Shown here: positions 59,756 through 63,952 of the stretch, piece by piece
Layout of the letters: each line of letters opens with the position of its first letter
How positions within the stretch are numbered: position 1 is the first letter of the stretch
From: Escherichia phage vB_EcoP_PW8
Sequence record: PQ362703.1
Reading direction: 5' to 3' (one strand)
Length of the DNA stretch: 64,000 bases
The notes under the pieces: model-generated
What the model was told of the DNA's origin: nothing
The model's database searches: none
Seen by the model: only the letters and a program-made list of their open reading frames with translations
Position numbers and translations under genes: made by a program

Positions 59756-62026
59756 TTATAAGTTCATACCAAGAGCCGATGCTGGGTCTTGGCTAGGGTC
59801 ATAATGCTGGGAACTAAGCGAATAGGTCGGGTCTTGCTGTGCAGCTAAGTCACGTTCCTGTAAAGAGTTCCCGTTAGTCAAAGCGTTATATCCGACAGCA
59901 GCAGATATGTTGGGGGTAGTTTCACCTTCTTTAGTAGGTGTTGTCAACGCCTTAGTTATTTGAAGGTTCTGGTTTCCTTGAGATTGTGCTTTTTGTTTTT
60001 CCATATCACGAGCATGTTTAGTACCAGATTCCTGTTCCAGATAATCCAGGTCTTTAAGGTCACCACTAGAAATAGCTTCTTTAGCCTTAGCATTATTGAG
60101 TGCAATCTTACTTTTCAGCTCTTCATTCTCAAGCTGTGCTTTCTGAATTGCTAATTGCTTGAGCTGTTCTTCCATAGGGTCTGGTTGTGGTTTCCAGGTA
60201 CGTAATTCATGTGCAAGGTCGGGCATACGTTTAAGCTCTGCAATCTTAGCCACAAGAGATAACGTAATAGTCTGGTCAACTGTATTACCTAATGTTTGAA
60301 CCATGAAGCTCAAATCCTGGGACTTCTGGTTATCAATCTCAGCAGTATTAATATCAACCTCAATGTCGAAATTACCTTTAAGGTCTTCTCGGTTAATTTC
60401 TACATACTGCTCATTGGTAATACGCACCACTTCTTTCTCAGATAAAAACACAGCATTCATTGCACAAATCTTAGTACCAATGTCTGCCATACCCTTAGCT
60501 AATCGGCGAAGGATTGCCATCTCACGTTTGGATGCTGCATCAAGTGCACCTCGAATACCAGCAGCTACATCTCCATAAGCTGCACCAGTTACACCACCAG
60601 AAAATGCTTTAACACCAGTTAGTGCTTCTGCTTCCTGGTTCTGCATCTGAGTCATTACTATTGCTGATTGAGGTAACTCAGGGAACTTGTGTTCCATAAT
60701 GGCCTGACTAGGATTACCCTGCATTGGGTTATACTCATAGTCTTGTCCATCATCATATCGACGTCGGTTCAGGGTATCTAACATCCCTTTAGGATAACCA
60801 CGTTGACCATTAGCACTTCGACCTAACAGGTCAATCATCCCACGCATGGTTGCACCAAGAATTGCTTGGTTATCTCCTAACAGTTCAGCATCAGCCTCAC
60901 CAAAGAGTTCACGTTTACGTGGCATGTAAGGAACAACTACCAATGGTAGCTTACCATCCGGGAATGGGTTCTTTTCCATACGAATAAGAGTAGAACCAAT
61001 CCAGGTAGCAACAATTGGTTCCAGTGAACCATCATCATTAATGTCGTAGAATCCCCAATATTCATAAGCAACTACTTTCTTACGTAGTGCATCTTTAAAC
61101 TGGAAATCACTAGGGGTTTTACTTTCATGGTCCGGGTCAGTCATAGGGCTAGAACTTTCCCAGTCAATCTTATCCAGGTTGTGATAACGGTCTTTATTCT
61201 TCATAAGGTCTGCTTTGCATGTCTCAAATGAGATAACTGCATACAGAGCTTTGTCCAAATCGCCATTACAGCTTGGGTCAATAACTACGTTATTGGGATT
61301 AAGCATCTCAACAGTAGGTCTGTTAACTAATGCTTTCTCTACCTCTACCTCAGTAACACCAGTCTGAATTGCATAAGTAGCTTCACCAGTTTCATTGAAG
61401 TAGTTAACAGCCTCCTTAATATCTTCCGGCATTGTTTCATCATATTCGCGAGGATTCTCTGCCTGAAGCTGTAGAGCCTGCTGAAGAATATCTGCTTGTT
61501 CCTGGTTCTCAATTGGATACAACTGGAAGACTGGGGTTTCTGTTTTAATCTTAACAGTCTTACGTTCCCAACCAATACGAGCAATGCCAGTACCATCGTC
61601 TACTACACTATGTACGTAATCATCCACCAGTTTTACTTTATTAAGCTGGGTACGGAATTGGTAGTTAAGAACTAATTCATTCTGGCGAGCAGCCAACTCA
61701 TCCTCAAAAGTAACCGGAGTTACTTTAAAAAGTTTATTGGATGAGAGGAATGGTTCAGACAATGGTGCATAACGCCATTCTGCCTGACGGCGAACCAGTC
61801 TAGGTTGGACTTGTGAACGACCTTTAACCTTTGGGGGTTTAGCCTTACCTTTGACTTCCATCAAGTCATTCCACTCACGAATCTGAGCCATGATTGCATC
61901 GTGAGCAGGTTTAGCTGCTTCCAAATCACCCTTGAGTAATTGGATACTTGGTTCCTTTTTCCAGTCCGTTAACTTCTCTGATTGAGCCGGGTCTGGTAAA
62001 GGCTTAAAAGTGTCTTGGTGTTCCAT
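59756..62026 (-). CDS. portal protein (N4 gp59-like)
   Basis: 756-aa ORF, matching size and position of the N4-like portal between lysis cassette and capsid gene. Confidence 0.65.
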
Positions 62027-62028
62027 AG

Positions 62029-62535
62029 TTATTCCTGTGCAAAAAGTTTACGGTCAGCCTGAATCTGTTTACCCAACTCAATTAGTTGGCTGTCACGGAG
62101 TCTAACAGTTGCCCTGAGTTCTTCAACCAAACGTCTGCCTTCTTCAAGACTGTTGTCGAGTCTGGATGCATGGCTTGCAAGACTTCTACACTCAAAGGTT
62201 CCGGCTTCGGCTTGACGTTTATATACCGATGCTCGTCTTTCAGACTGTTGCATCCGGCTGTCGTAATCACTGCTAACGCGAGCAAGCTCGCTTGCGTAAT
62301 TACTCTCAGCCGTCTGCAACCGGGAAGTGAGTAACCCGACTTCATAACTATGGTTTCTTTGGAGAGCATTGTATTTGTCCTGTAATTTTTGTAGTGCCTT
62401 TTGATCTTCAACCTTTTGGGCATCCCACTCCTTTTGAACAGTAGACTGCCCATTGGAGTTACCCCAAAAGTAAATGGTGGCCCCTAGGACCACCACCAGA
62501 AGATAAGGCCAACCTTTAGAGATTAGCATCTTCAT
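62029..62535 (-). CDS. i-spanin (Rz-like)
   Basis: N-terminal TM segment [16 protein letters not shown] then charged coiled-coil-like region; adjacent to endolysin; contains embedded lipoprotein ORF. Confidence 0.6.
62082..62345 (-). CDS. o-spanin (Rz1-like), embedded in the +1 frame of the i-spanin gene
   Basis: Lipoprotein signal with lipobox ...[12 protein letters not shown] and short Pro-rich mature part; start taken at Met37 of track ORF 62082..62453 (alternative Met29 at 62369). Confidence 0.55.
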   Translation of the reverse strand: MKSGYSLPGCRRLRVITQASLLALAVITTAGCNSLKDEHRYINVKPKPEPLSVEVLQAMHPDSTTVLKKADVWLKNSGQLLDSVTAN

Positions 62536-63160
62536 TACATGCCTCCAGTGGCACGTTGCCTATTCGGTTAGCTACCCAACCATACGTAAAGTCTGGCATG
62601 TTTAGTGAGGTGTAGTGGTTAAGTTGTTTGGCATCGAGTAACTTAATCATTACCTGACATGCTGCAACTTTGCCTCGCTTTTTCTGTAATGCTTTATATG
62701 CATTAACAGTACTTGTACCGACTTTACCATCAACCTGTATTTTAGGGTAGTCTTTGCCATCACGGGACATTTCATTAAGAGATAACTGCAACCACTTAGC
62801 TGGACGAGTAACACCAGTGTTTACACCAGCATCAACCAGCTTATGTGTTACAGCAGGAGATATATCAGCGAAGGCTACGAAGTTAGGCTTAAGTACGTAG
62901 TCATCAATGTATATCTCAGCAGCCATCTCTTTAGATAAACCCTTCATAGAACCATCCCAACCATACTCAGTAGCCAGAACTTCTTTGTGAGACTTAGCTA
63001 CTGAATGGGTAATTCCATGATTAGTTTCCCCACCTGGGTCACGAGGATTGTTTACATATCCTCCTTCCATATAAAACACTGCCCCCAGGATAGCAGCGAC
63101 AACCCCTCCCACTGCACCACCTTTCGCAGCAAGTTTCTGTTTAGCTTTCATGTGAATCAT
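62516..63160 (-). CDS. SAR endolysin, GH108 N-acetylmuramidase type (N4 gp61-like)
   Basis: N-terminal weakly hydrophobic Gly/Ala-rich segment AAKGGAVGGVVAAILGAVFY (SAR-like), then GH108 signature EGGYVNNPRDPGGETNHGIT. Confidence 0.75.
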   Translation of the reverse strand: MIHMKAKQKLAAKGGAVGGVVAAILGAVFYMEGGYVNNPRDPGGETNHGITHSVAKSHKEVLATEYGWDGSMKGLSKEMAAEIYIDDYVLKPNFVAFADISPAVTHKLVDAGVNTGVTRPAKWLQLSLNEMSRDGKDYPKIQVDGKVGTSTVNAYKALQKKRGKVAACQVMIKLLDAKQLNHYTSLNMPDFTYGWVANRIGNVPLEACNEDANL

Positions 63161-63401
63161 CCTTTGGACGGAATCGTATCAATCTGCCTATGATGTTTAA
63201 GGCAAACAGTGCGATTGCAATATTGGAACCCTGAGGAATATCTTCCAGGATATGTCGAGGTAGTCCTGTCAGCATTGGTTGGATAATATCTATGGCAGAA
63301 AACAAAATTAAACCTAATGTACTAATCTGAACGGATGCCCACTTCCAGCATCTTTTCCAGTTAGGTACTAGCTCTACCTTTCTTTTTAACCTGCGAACCA
63401 T
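63141..63401 (-). CDS. holin (two TM segments; possibly pinholin given SAR endolysin)
   Basis: Track ORF 63141..63467 trimmed to Met23 with GGGAG RBS; two hydrophobic helices; immediately upstream of endolysin. Confidence 0.5.
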   Translation of the reverse strand: MVRRLKRKVELVPNWKRCWKWASVQISTLGLILFSAIDIIQPMLTGLPRHILEDIPQGSNIAIALFALNIIGRLIRFRPKDDSHES

Positions 63402-63715
63402 GTGAATATCTCCCGTCTTGCAGCAGCCAATACACCAATAATTGCACCTGCCCCAGCCCATACCCACTTACCGAAAATCCCAGCACCAACAACTTTATGC
63501 TTAATGGTAATGAACTCTTCAATAGTAGGTTCATTCTTAGCTAAGCTATCCTCCACATTTTTAAGTCTATTACCTATGTCATTGATTGAATTCCGTAGCT
63601 CTGACAGAGTCTCCTCCAGTTTCTCACGGTCCTGTCTGTCTCTTGTCTGGTTCTCAAACAGAGTCTTCAATCGTTCCTCTAGCCTGACTAGGAGCAGTTC
63701 ACCTGATTCATTCAT
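63386..63715 (-). CDS. membrane protein with C-terminal TM segment (lysis-associated?)
   Basis: 109-aa ORF; coiled-coil-like N-terminus and C-terminal VVGAGIFGKWVWAGAGAIIGVLAAA. Confidence 0.45.
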   Translation of the reverse strand: MNESGELLLVRLEERLKTLFENQTRDRQDREKLEETLSELRNSINDIGNRLKNVEDSLAKNEPTIEEFITIKHKVVGAGIFGKWVWAGAGAIIGVLAAARREIFTWFAG

Positions 63716-63878
63716 AATATTACCGTAGTTGTATAGTTAGAATCCCCAATAGAGTCATATCATAAGATGACTCTTAGATAATACTTAGTATGATGAAGTA
63801 CATCCAGACATAGTGTCTAGTATCAACACATGGTAGATAGTATTCAGTTTGATATGTTTAATATCAGGACAAGTAATC

Positions 63879-63904
63879 ACCCTAACATCAATATCTGTTA
63901 GGGT
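63879..63904. promoter_or_regulatory. perfect 9-bp inverted repeat in the region upstream of the lysis/structural operon
   Basis: ACCCTAACA-TCAATATC-TGTTAGGGT; not followed by a U-run on either strand. Confidence 0.3.
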
Positions 63905-63932
63905 AATGCAAATGGTAAACTTTATATAAGAA

Positions 63933-63952
63933 AGCCCCCGATTAAGGGGGCT
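63933..63952 (-). terminator. rho-independent terminator on minus strand
   Basis: On the minus strand AGCCCCC-TTAATC-GGGGGCT followed by TTCTTATATAAAG. Confidence 0.5.

Follow-up and report, generated by a model that had tools for sequence, protein, structure and literature searches.

Escherichia phage vB_EcoP_PW8 (PQ362703.1) carries a lysis cassette that is very probably of the N4-like (Gamaleyavirus) multi-gene type and orthologous, gene for gene, to the cassette of phage N4. We analysed it within a window of 64,000 nt, which is the whole stretch of PW8 DNA examined. The cassette encodes, in this order, a gp63-type predicted pinholin, a gp62-type holin with two TMDs, a SAR endolysin, an i-spanin and an o-spanin whose gene is embedded in that of the i-spanin (Table 1). 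It is an ordinary and already known lysis system, the N4 orthologues of which have been dissected experimentally. The gene content, gene order, reading frames, protein families, sequence signals for membrane segments and lipidation, and conservation of the embedded frame are direct observations on the PW8 locus and its relatives. The first-pass annotation had read the locus as a holin, a SAR-type GH108 muramidase, an i-spanin and an embedded o-spanin, and every element of this reading holds; its four minus-strand ORFs (62029–62535, 62516–63160, 63141–63401 and 63386–63715) were all recovered at those positions. The embedded ORF passes a lipoprotein rule and the endolysin has a SAR-like segment, the two signals on which that reading had been staked.

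Table 1. Features of the PW8 lysis locus, with coordinates in the 64,000-nt window.
Feature	Coordinates	Strand	Size or residues	Basis
Lysis cassette of Escherichia phage vB_EcoP_PW8	62029–63715	minus	five genes	
gp63-type pinholin (predicted)	63386..63715	minus	109 aa, ATG start	phrog_5211, E 4.6e-50
gp63 'LIN domain' and TMD	63404..63532	minus	residues 62–104 (EPTIEEFITIKHKVVGAGIFGKWVWAGAGAIIGVLAAARREIF)	gp63 alignment
gp62-type two-TMD holin	63141..63401	minus	86 aa	Pfam DUF7940, E 1.5e-14; phrog_1356 'holin', E 2.4e-30
SAR endolysin, GH108 N-acetylmuramidase with PG_binding_3	62516..63151	minus	211 aa	Pfam; phrog_315 'endolysin'
SAR segment of the endolysin	63071..63133	minus	residues 7–27 (LAAKGGAVGGVVAAILGAVFY)	KD19 peak 1.78
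i-spanin, gp60-type	62029..62535	minus	168 aa	phrog_6197 'Rz-like spanin', E 2.8e-76 over full length
o-spanin, gp60a / gp60' type	62082..62345	minus	87-aa precursor	lipoprotein rule, conservation
Terminator-like GC hairpin and T-run	63933..63952	minus		pattern scan, AGCCCCCTTAATCGGGGGCT TTCTT; consensus match only

Overall organization of the PW8 cassette

DNA comparison groups the PW8 window with Gamaleyavirus (G7C-like, N4-like Schitoviridae). The DNA identity to relatives is ~93% across 24 kb, and the whole cassette is ~95% identical to those of St11Ph5 (~95.6%), Bp4, pSb-1, ECBP1 and others. The gene order is that of N4 gp63-gp62-gp61-gp60/gp60a and is followed directly by the portal gene, whose product matches the SU10 portal family. 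The same five-gene order and then the portal gene are common to G7C, N4, KP8, Moo19, Paxi, inbricus and others; N4 also shares the gene overlaps with PW8. The PW8 proteins share 67%, 60%, 68%, 55% and 65% amino acid identity with N4 gp63, gp62, gp61, gp60 and gp60a, respectively.

Proteins were assigned to families by searches of Pfam, PHROGs and NCBIfam, plus a PDB match for the endolysin, and membrane segments were scored by Kyte-Doolittle hydropathy in a 19-residue window (KD19). In NCBIfam, the four proteins other than the o-spanin yielded nothing beyond a sub-threshold match of the endolysin. Upstream of the cassette, where the preceding tailspike module ends, the pattern scan found a terminator-like hairpin. 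The scan for sigma-70 promoters returned 4 sites versus 4.6 expected, which is no enrichment, and no promoter is claimed.

The endolysin combines a GH108 muramidase with an N-terminal SAR segment

The endolysin matches Pfam Glyco_hydro_108 (PF05838) with an E value of 1.6e-19 (70.6 bits, gathering cut-off 21.2) and PG_binding_3 (PF09374) with an E value of 1.6e-7 (31.8 bits, cut-off 24.6). The PDB entry 6v3z, a GH108-type muramidase, matches with an E value of 1.3e-26, and the sequence contains both the EGGY and the D-P-GG-E-T motif (MEGGYVNNPRDPGGETNHG). The endolysin lies outside the narrower NCBIfam equivalog 'holin-associated N-acetylmuramidase', because it scores 57 bits versus a cut-off of 240.

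The N-terminus contains a hydrophobic, Gly/Ala-rich segment (LAAKGGAVGGVVAAILGAVF; KD19 1.78) that is preceded by lysines. Gly and Ala account for 11 of the 21 residues of the SAR segment, which is flanked by the basic MKAKQK before and MEGGY after and aligns with the SAR domain of N4 gp61. By these N-terminal features the endolysin is of the SAR type, and its export and its release upon depolarisation are predicted by analogy with N4 gp61. N4 gp61 is reportedly the subject of an earlier study by Stojkovic and Rothman-Denes (2007), which Awuah et al. cite. The N4 protein complements together with a pinholin and is leaky if expressed alone, and Gly-to-Glu changes in its SAR domain lead to rapid lysis (Awuah et al., bioRxiv 10.1101/2025.11.12.688109).

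The first-pass annotation had placed the endolysin at 62516–63160, the mechanical ORF of 214 aa. Its assignment as a GH108 protein with a SAR-like N-terminus stands, but translation probably starts at ATG 63151 rather than at 63160, as judged by Shine-Dalgarno spacing and by relatives: AAGGA lies 8 nt upstream of ATG 63151 and the same start is annotated in St11Ph5 and G7C, whereas the start at 63160 has no spacer after AAGG.

The gp63-type and gp62-type membrane proteins

The gene at 63386–63715, which the first-pass annotation had recorded as an unnamed membrane protein, encodes a gp63-type pinholin, the counterpart of the N4 lysis timer; its hole-forming activity is predicted by analogy with N4 gp63. 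The protein consists of a cytoplasmic N-terminal coiled-coil and a single Gly/Ala-rich C-terminal TMD, with the hydrophobic segment at residues 74–100 (KD19 1.59), and its gene overlaps the gp62 start as in N4. It matches phrog_5211, a family of unknown function. The identity to N4 gp63 rises from 67% overall to 86% across the C-terminal 49 aa. The stretch formed by the LIN domain and the TMD is near-invariant among 15 homologues; N4 has the same juxtamembrane PTIEEFITIKHKVVGAG and shares at least 86% identity in the TMD. The residues that match the N4 rapid-lysis sites T65, I70, T71 and I72 are conserved in PW8. In contrast, the rapid-lysis site S62 of N4 is replaced by Asn61, PW8 lacks the alternative Met17 start of N4, and the N-terminal 60 aa are only ~52% identical.

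A two-TM holin had been proposed at 63141–63401, and the DUF7940 match (54.7 bits, cut-off 27), the match to phrog_1356 and two hydrophobic segments (KD19 peaks of 1.79 and 1.46, the second weaker) agree with this. The class is therefore kept, and comparison with N4 gp62 refines the predicted role to that of a late-triggering, non-essential holin. ATG 63401, with GGGAGA 7 nt upstream, is an internal start in the mechanical ORF 63141–63467. A longer form of gp62 may be made from GTG 63467 or ATG 63461; the 22-codon extension upstream of the holin start is open in 7 of 11 phages. As a minor possibility, gp62 could be a dual-start gene that encodes both a holin and an antiholin, with the long form beginning at GTG 63467 inside the TMD-coding sequence of gp63.

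Work on N4 identifies gp63, which complements S21 and not S105, as the pinholin and lysis timer; N4 can do without gp62, a holin that acts late (bioRxiv 10.1101/2025.11.12.688109). The converse assignment, in which the gp62-type protein is the primary holin and the gp63-type protein only an accessory, antiholin or structural protein, is implied by the first-pass annotation and by most GenBank records and accords with database usage, as PHROG and RefSeq call gp62 'holin' and gp63 unknown, tape-measure or tail needle; the roles could also differ from N4 in G7C-type phages, which reportedly do not show the lysis inhibition that N4 shows. We nevertheless consider it highly unlikely. Deletion of N4 gp62 leaves plasmid-driven lysis as it is, whereas deletion of gp63 delays it by 20 min; N4 gp63 on its own kills cells and can complement for the S21 pinholin; and rapid-lysis mutations of N4 occur in gp63 and gp61, never in gp62. 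In PW8, the LIN and TMD region of gp63 is near-identical to that of N4, and a Pfam search of the 109-aa protein with its C-terminal TMD gives no significant match and nothing that points to a tape-measure role.

PW8 gp63 is of the St11Ph5 allele type, being 96% identical to St11Ph5 and only 68% identical to G7C gp63, which is due to a mosaic break in the 5´ half of the gene. Within Gamaleyavirus, the N-terminal coiled-coil falls into discrete alleles: one found in St11Ph5 and PW8, one typified by G7C and one resembling that of KP8. Between alleles, the first ~60 aa are 50–58% identical, whereas the LIN/TMD region and the remaining cassette are 86–98% identical. The N4 model may not carry over to PW8 in its regulatory part, because G7C belongs to the same genus and reportedly lacks lysis inhibition. 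A speculative and rather doubtful explanation is that the coiled-coil serves as an exchangeable regulatory interface for a signal of lysis timing or lysis inhibition; if true, this would account for lysis inhibition in N4 but not in G7C. More mundanely, the allele break would simply mark a module boundary, that of the variable tailspike (host-range) region, which happens to lie within gp63.

The i-spanin and the embedded o-spanin

The i-spanin has one N-terminal TMD (residues 3–21, KD19 1.61) and a hydrophilic remainder, which together give the arrangement of a type II inner-membrane i-spanin, a single N-terminal TMD followed by a helical periplasmic domain. It contains a single periplasmic cysteine, Cys115. 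GGAGG lies 6 nt upstream of its ATG, and tblastn finds homologues in 158 phage records. Neither spanin protein matches the Pfam families of lambda Rz and Rz1 at E ≤ 0.1, and the best spanin-related Pfam match, DUF2514, has an E value of 0.03 and is below its cut-off. The name 'Rz/Rz1' that the first-pass annotation gave to the pair thus denotes functional analogy and not homology, since there is no Pfam-level similarity to lambda Rz/Rz1; it is adequate as a functional label but not as a sequence family. The PW8 spanins are members of the same spanin family as N4 gp60/gp60a.

The o-spanin gene lies wholly inside the i-spanin gene (62029–62535), directly after the endolysin gene, and spans 0.38–0.90 of the i-spanin length. 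Embedded spanin genes are typically found at such a relative position within the i-spanin (Kongari et al. 2018, PMC6139136). The distance between the two starts, 62535 − 62345 = 190 = 63 × 3 + 1, places the o-spanin in the +1 frame, and the alternative-frame ORF 62082–62453 sits entirely within the i-spanin ORF. An o-spanin embedded in the +1 frame with the lipobox TTAGC had been claimed, and both the frame offset and the peptide agree with it.

The lipobox reads ITTAG followed by the lipobox cysteine (codon 62250–62252), which yields a signal of 31 residues and a mature lipoprotein of 56 aa. The Thr at position −3 is outside the classical [LVI] and inside the wider o-spanin pattern. The residue at +2 is Asn and not Asp, as is expected for sorting to the outer membrane; homologues have S, N, G or A. 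The PROSITE PS51257-type rule is passed only from ATG 62345 (Cys32, Lys2), which is the ATG nearest to the cysteine and has a weak Shine-Dalgarno and an unusually long signal peptide of 31 residues. ATG 62369, the start annotated in St11Ph5, is a possible alternative; it has a better Shine-Dalgarno, and the cysteine then falls at residue 40, outside the PROSITE range. The start at 62453, equivalent to the G7C annotation, was rejected, as the cysteine would be residue 68. As annotated, the o-spanin of G7C has 123 aa and that of St11Ph5 has 95 aa, whereas the lipoprotein rule favours 87 aa in PW8. The mature o-spanin is identical whichever start is used.

An embedded ORF may also arise by chance. 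If the +1 ORF were merely a chance open frame, the phage would use gp60 alone or a spanin encoded elsewhere. Several observations leave room for this: searches of Pfam, PHROGs and NCBIfam return no match for the o-spanin, ATG 62345 is preceded by a weak Shine-Dalgarno, the embedded ORF is unannotated in most related GenBank records, and shuffling of synonymous codons with the i-spanin protein fixed yields +1 ATG-ORFs that reach 87 codons or more in 7–14% of the shuffles. A stop-free +1 run of at least 133 codons occurs in 1–2% of them. The length of the ORF in a single sequence is therefore weak evidence, and we rely on comparative evidence.

Thirteen Schitoviridae were compared, which come from at least 6 host genera and reach down to ~37% i-spanin identity. 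In all 13, the +1 frame is open, the lipobox cysteine is at the aligned position and the mature peptide is strongly conserved, with a length of 56–59 aa; the +2 frame is open for 49 codons at most. Eleven of the 13 pass the strict PROSITE-type lipoprotein rule. KP8 fails because no canonical start lies within 35 residues of its cysteine, and Philippe because its first basic residue is at position 8, but both still have the lipobox cysteine at the aligned position. Moreover, the third codon positions of the i-spanin are about threefold less variable where the genes overlap: wobble variability drops from 38% before the overlap to 12% in the part that codes for the mature o-spanin (Fisher p = 0.0017). 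In addition, N4 gp60 and gp60a complement the ambers of lambda RzRz1 (bioRxiv 10.1101/2025.11.12.688109). A chance origin is hardly credible in view of these results, and the conservation indicates that the embedded o-spanin ORF is a real gene and more than a product of chance. PW8 thus has the architecture of an embedded two-component spanin; disruption of the outer membrane by the pair is predicted from the N4 orthologues (55% and 65% identity), for which it has been shown.

Predicted lysis pathway and comparison with known systems

In N4, the orthologues act as a pinholin, a holin, a SAR endolysin and a two-component spanin (Awuah et al., bioRxiv 10.1101/2025.11.12.688109). These functions were tested by heterologous expression and by lambda/hy21 complementation, and gp60-63 suffices for rapid lysis (same preprint). 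For PW8, the activities and the order of events are predicted by orthology to N4 (55–68% identity; preprint source). The cassette, immediately upstream of the portal gene, would be expressed late. The endolysin would be exported via Sec, and its weakly hydrophobic, Gly/Ala-rich SAR segment would hold it, inactive, in the inner membrane; the gp63-type protein would build up in the same membrane, its one C-terminal TMD inserted and its coiled-coil facing the cytoplasm. At a set time, the gp63-type pinholin would trigger and form small depolarising holes; depolarisation would let the SAR endolysin escape into the periplasm and break down the murein with its GH108 muramidase domain. The gp62-type two-TMD holin would trigger later, as a back-up or to provide an exit route. 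The o-spanin, a 56-residue lipoprotein of the outer membrane, would join the inner-membrane i-spanin in a periplasm-spanning complex, which would disrupt the outer membrane once the murein is gone.

PW8 resembles N4 in the +1-embedded o-spanin with a 56-residue mature form and in the SAR segment and EGGY motif of the endolysin. The o-spanin signals differ: that of PW8 has 31 aa and the lipobox TAGC, whereas N4 has a Met 15 aa before the cysteine and the lipobox IVGC. G7C belongs to the same genus as PW8, and its endolysin, i-spanin and o-spanin are ~95–96% identical to the PW8 proteins. With lambda Rz/Rz1, PW8 shares a type II i-spanin whose gene holds that of the o-spanin in its +1 frame, at ~0.4–0.9 of its length; in contrast, no sequence homology to lambda is detectable (no Pfam Rz/Rz1 match). 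The mature o-spanin of PW8 has 56 aa and is not notably proline-rich, compared with 40 aa in lambda, and it has no periplasmic cysteine, so that Cys115 of the i-spanin is the only one in the pair. With S21/R21 of phage 21, PW8 shares the logic of a SAR endolysin and a small-hole holin, the activities being assigned by analogy. However, the PW8 pinholin has one C-terminal TMD and S21 has two, and the PW8 endolysin is a GH108 protein and does not have a T4-lysozyme-like fold.

Annotation of the lysis genes in related records

The cassette has little discovery value, and its practical use lies in the annotation of related records. The first-pass annotation had expected gene callers to miss the o-spanin. 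This is true of most related records, as the gene is absent from the annotation of N4 RefSeq, KP8, Moo19, inbricus, Fifi067, RiverRider and RG-2014, but it does not apply to G7C, St11Ph5, Paxi and Philippe, in which the gene is annotated by hand; the o-spanin is therefore not new. The embedded gene is named gp60' in G7C and gp60.1 in St11Ph5, both of the same genus as PW8, with the explicit annotation "ORF60'; embedded within ORF60; potential Rz/Rz1-like spanin"; the annotated cassettes run gp63, gp62, gp61, gp60, gp60' in G7C and gp63 to gp60.2/gp60.1 in St11Ph5. In related records, gp63 is widely mislabelled; no domain match supports either of the names it bears in GenBank, 'tail length tape-measure protein' and 'tail needle protein'. 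Because related records omit the o-spanin and mislabel gp63, a curated annotation of PW8 should list five lysis genes, with the starts assigned above. In one Klebsiella phage record the spanin is covered by the label 'RIIA lysis inhibitor', which is likewise unsupported by domain matches. The records of Axy10 and HN01 show the reverse omission: the embedded frame alone is annotated and the i-spanin is missed.

Gene layout of the lysis cassette

Four minus-strand ORFs lie in a row within 62029-63715, with small overlaps between neighbours, and a further ORF is open inside the i-spanin gene in the +1 frame (62535-62345 = 190 = 3x63+1). The ORF coordinates, the frame and the lipobox string (TTAGC) given in the first-pass annotation are all right. 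With only two bases between the TAA that ends the i-spanin gene (62029-62031) and the ATG of the portal gene (62026), the cassette sits within the late structural operon and is probably co-transcribed with the structural genes, not as a separate unit.

Features of the lysis cassette and the adjoining portal gene
Feature	Position	Strand	Description
gp63-type protein	63386-63715	minus	ORF, 109 aa
gp62-type two-TMD holin	63141-63401	minus	ORF, 86 aa counted from ATG; mechanical ORF reaches GTG 63467
GH108 endolysin	62516-63160	minus	mechanical ORF, 214 aa
i-spanin	62029-62535	minus	ORF, 168 aa
+1-frame ORF inside i-spanin gene	62082-62453	minus	open frame; lipobox, Cys codon 62250-62252
Portal protein	59756-62026	minus	ORF, 756 aa; SU10/N4-type, Pfam PF23899, E 2e-150

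At the DNA level, the 1.9-kb cassette region shares 94-96% identity with ~55 phages that infect Escherichia or Shigella and belong to Gamaleyavirus, a genus of the Schitoviridae (Enquatrovirinae); St11Ph5, Bp4, pSb-1, ECBP1, EC1-UPM and G7C are among them. Over the final 24 kb of the window, identity to these phages is ~93%. On this basis the window makes up the greater part of a podophage genome of the N4-like, G7C-like kind, and its lysis genes correspond to the N4 'gp63-gp60' block. The order of C-terminally anchored small protein, two-TMD protein, muramidase, spanin and portal is common to 11 phages (G7C, St11Ph5, N4, KP8, Moo19, inbricus, Axy10, HN01, Fifi067, Paxi and RiverRider). Philippe and RG-2014 keep muramidase-spanin-portal, but in them just one small gene precedes the endolysin.

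The spanin pair

The i-spanin at 62029-62535 is borne out by its match to phrog_6197 ('Rz-like spanin', E 2.8e-76) and an N-terminal TMD. GGAGG stands 6 nt upstream of its ATG, and identity to N4 gp60 is 55%. By tblastn, homologues occur in 158 phage records, with Escherichia, Klebsiella, Erwinia, Achromobacter, Pseudomonas, Stenotrophomonas, Burkholderia, Xanthomonas and Delftia as hosts. The i-spanin has a single periplasmic Cys (Cys115), conserved in homologues; the mature o-spanin lacks one.

The length of the embedded ORF is not compelling on a single sequence, because synonymous-codon shuffles with the i-spanin protein fixed yield a +1 ATG-ORF with 87 codons or more in 7-14% of cases, and 133 or more codons uninterrupted by a stop in 1-2%. 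We regard the comparative evidence as decisive for gene status. Across 13 Schitoviridae loci, whose i-spanins are as little as ~37-40% identical, every +1 frame is open and no +2 frame is longer than 49 codons. All 13 products carry a hydrophobic stretch followed by a lipobox Cys at one shared aligned position. The mature peptide past this Cys is strongly conserved in sequence and comprises 56-59 residues in 12 loci, being longer in HN01. A strict PROSITE PS51257-type rule is passed by 11/13 products; the two failures come only from how far the start codon lies from the Cys (KP8) or where the first basic residue falls (Philippe). None of the 13 loci has Asp directly after the Cys, in keeping with outer-membrane sorting of the predicted o-spanin. 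In a set of 10 distinct i-spanin genes from Gamaleyavirus, the share of variable third-codon positions is 38% ahead of the overlap, 32% after it and 12% in the part encoding the mature o-spanin (Fisher test, p = 0.0017), where i-spanin third positions are o-spanin second positions; this drop matches the signature expected of dual coding. The o-spanin spans 0.38-0.90 of the i-spanin length, a placement typical for embedded spanins (PMC6139136).

The most likely o-spanin start is ATG 62345, since it is the only start in the window that passes the lipoprotein rule (31-residue signal, Cys32). ATG 62369, used in St11Ph5, comes with a better AGGA, yet it places the Cys at residue 40; both give an identical 56-aa mature lipoprotein. 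The lipobox o-spanin proposed inside the i-spanin gene is thus upheld by the 13 open frames with their lipobox Cys, the lipoprotein rule from 62345 and the wobble suppression.

In Klebsiella phage KP8 (1631-1954), the o-spanin frame has a conserved lipobox (LLGC) and mature peptide. No ATG, GTG or TTG occurs 12-38 codons upstream of the Cys, so translation would begin at an ATG unusually far away (39-40 codons) or at a non-canonical codon. Only the embedded frame is annotated, and the i-spanin left out, in Achromobacter phage Axy10 (1501-2013) and Burkholderia phage HN01 (1498-2253). The HN01 i-spanin frame lacks a stop at the usual site and runs into the portal region (251 aa), which points to a frameshift from sequencing or assembly, or else to a real extension.

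The earlier term 'Rz/Rz1 spanin pair' holds for the embedded two-component architecture but not for the sequence family. The spanin proteins have no Pfam match to the lambda Rz or Rz1 families (DUF2514 only, sub-threshold) and belong to the N4 gp60/gp60a family, with 'Rz/Rz1' read as analogy, not homology. Gene callers are biased against embedded o-spanins (PMC6139136), and the expectation that they would miss this one is generally right: it is lacking in seven records (N4 RefSeq, KP8, Moo19, inbricus, Fifi067, RiverRider and RG-2014). However, it is not new: G7C annotates it as ORF60', embedded in ORF60 and potentially an Rz/Rz1-like spanin, and it is also annotated in Paxi, Philippe and St11Ph5 (gp60.1).

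Endolysin and holins

The endolysin matches Glyco_hydro_108 (E 1.6e-19) and PG_binding_3 (E 1.6e-7) in Pfam, both over cut-off, and is labelled 'endolysin' by PHROG match. The closest solved structure is GH108-type Sen1395 (PDB 6v3z, E 1.3e-26), and N4 gp61 is 68% identical. Its N-terminus reads MKAKQK-LAAKGGAVGGVVAAILGAVFY-MEGGYVNNPRDPGGETNHG. As the hydrophobic segment is lysine-flanked, has Gly/Ala at 11/21 residues and leads directly into the catalytic EGGY motif, it bears the sequence signature of a signal-anchor-release (SAR) domain. The SAR-type GH108 muramidase therefore stands, but its start is likely ATG 63151, not 63160; AAGGA lies 8 nt upstream of 63151, the start annotated in St11Ph5 and G7C.

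The two-TM holin at 63141-63401 is corroborated by DUF7940 (E 1.5e-14) and phrog_1356 'holin' (E 2.4e-30) matches and two hydrophobic segments; it is 60% identical to N4 gp62, and GGGAGA stands 7 nt upstream of ATG 63401. Its frame is open for 22 codons above this ATG (63402-63467, minus strand), to GTG 63467 or ATG 63461, wholly within the gp63 TMD-coding sequence. N4 has ATG at both positions, a possible dual-start motif (bioRxiv 10.1101/2025.11.12.688109). Of 11 phages, 7 have the extension open; a stop closes off this reading in Moo19, Paxi, Fifi067 and RiverRider, so it is not kept throughout.

The unnamed 'membrane protein' at 63386-63715 is a minus-strand ORF with a coiled-coil-like N-terminal region and a Gly/Ala-rich C-terminal TMD, and orthology with N4 gp63 (67% identity) refines it to a predicted pinholin. 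A Pfam search gave no significant family, and the PHROG match is phrog_5211 (unknown function). The stretch EPTIEEFITIKHKVVGAGIFGKWVWAGAGAIIGVLAAARREIF is nearly invariant in 15 homologues. Unlike the S21 pinholin, the window gp63 has a single C-terminal TMD.

The N4 orthologues were dissected in a Ramsey laboratory preprint (bioRxiv 10.1101/2025.11.12.688109; PMC12642591). There, gp60-gp63 behind the lambda late promoter lyse E. coli in ~25 min. gp61 complements endolysin defects with lambda (large-hole holin) and phage 21 (pinholin) and is leaky alone, which identifies it as a SAR endolysin. gp60 with embedded gp60a (56-residue mature lipoprotein) fully complements lambda Rz/Rz1 ambers. gp63 kills cells and complements the S21 pinholin, though not lambda S105. 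The holin gp62 makes large holes, triggers late and is non-essential. Rapid-lysis mutations fall in the gp61 SAR segment and the juxtamembrane LIN domain of gp63 (S62, T65, I70, T71, I72). The window gp63 keeps equivalents of T65, I70, T71 and I72, with S62 replaced by Asn.

Gene content, signals and conservation were observed in the window; the activities of its proteins we infer by orthology with N4. By function, the cassette would combine a pinholin, a SAR endolysin and a two-component spanin whose embedded architecture resembles that of lambda. The SAR endolysin would be anchored in the inner membrane until the gp63 pinholin fires and depolarises it; the released endolysin would break down murein and the gp60/gp60a complex the outer membrane, with gp62 as a late alternative route. 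The observation is confirmed and its interpretation supported, for a system already known.

Mosaic break and upstream region

In the 5' half of gp63 (63529-63715), DNA identity to G7C and a KP8-like Gamaleyavirus contig drops from ~85-95% to ~56-63% within the first ~60 codons, and from gp63 upstream to 64000 it is <45% to both. The LIN/TMD half and all downstream genes remain conserved, and the genus has at least three N-terminal gp63 allele types. The break is probably the border of a variable tailspike module, yet lies inside the pinholin's cytoplasmic domain.

Homologues of gp63 are commonly annotated 'tail length tape-measure protein (T)' or 'tail needle protein' in GenBank/RefSeq records of relatives, including KP8, and the spanin region is called 'RIIA lysis inhibitor' in one Klebsiella phage record. 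Domain searches of the cassette proteins gave no evidence for these labels, which appear to be mis-annotations passed between records.

At 63933-63952 (minus strand), ~215 nt upstream of gp63, AGCCCCCTTAATCGGGGGCT TTCTT makes up a GC-rich hairpin and T-run; it is followed by an AT-rich non-coding stretch (63716-63932). This region could hold the terminator for the tailspike gene before it as well as a late promoter; a sigma-70 consensus scan found no enrichment here. In G7C, a 16-nt repeat_region is annotated in the equivalent spacer.
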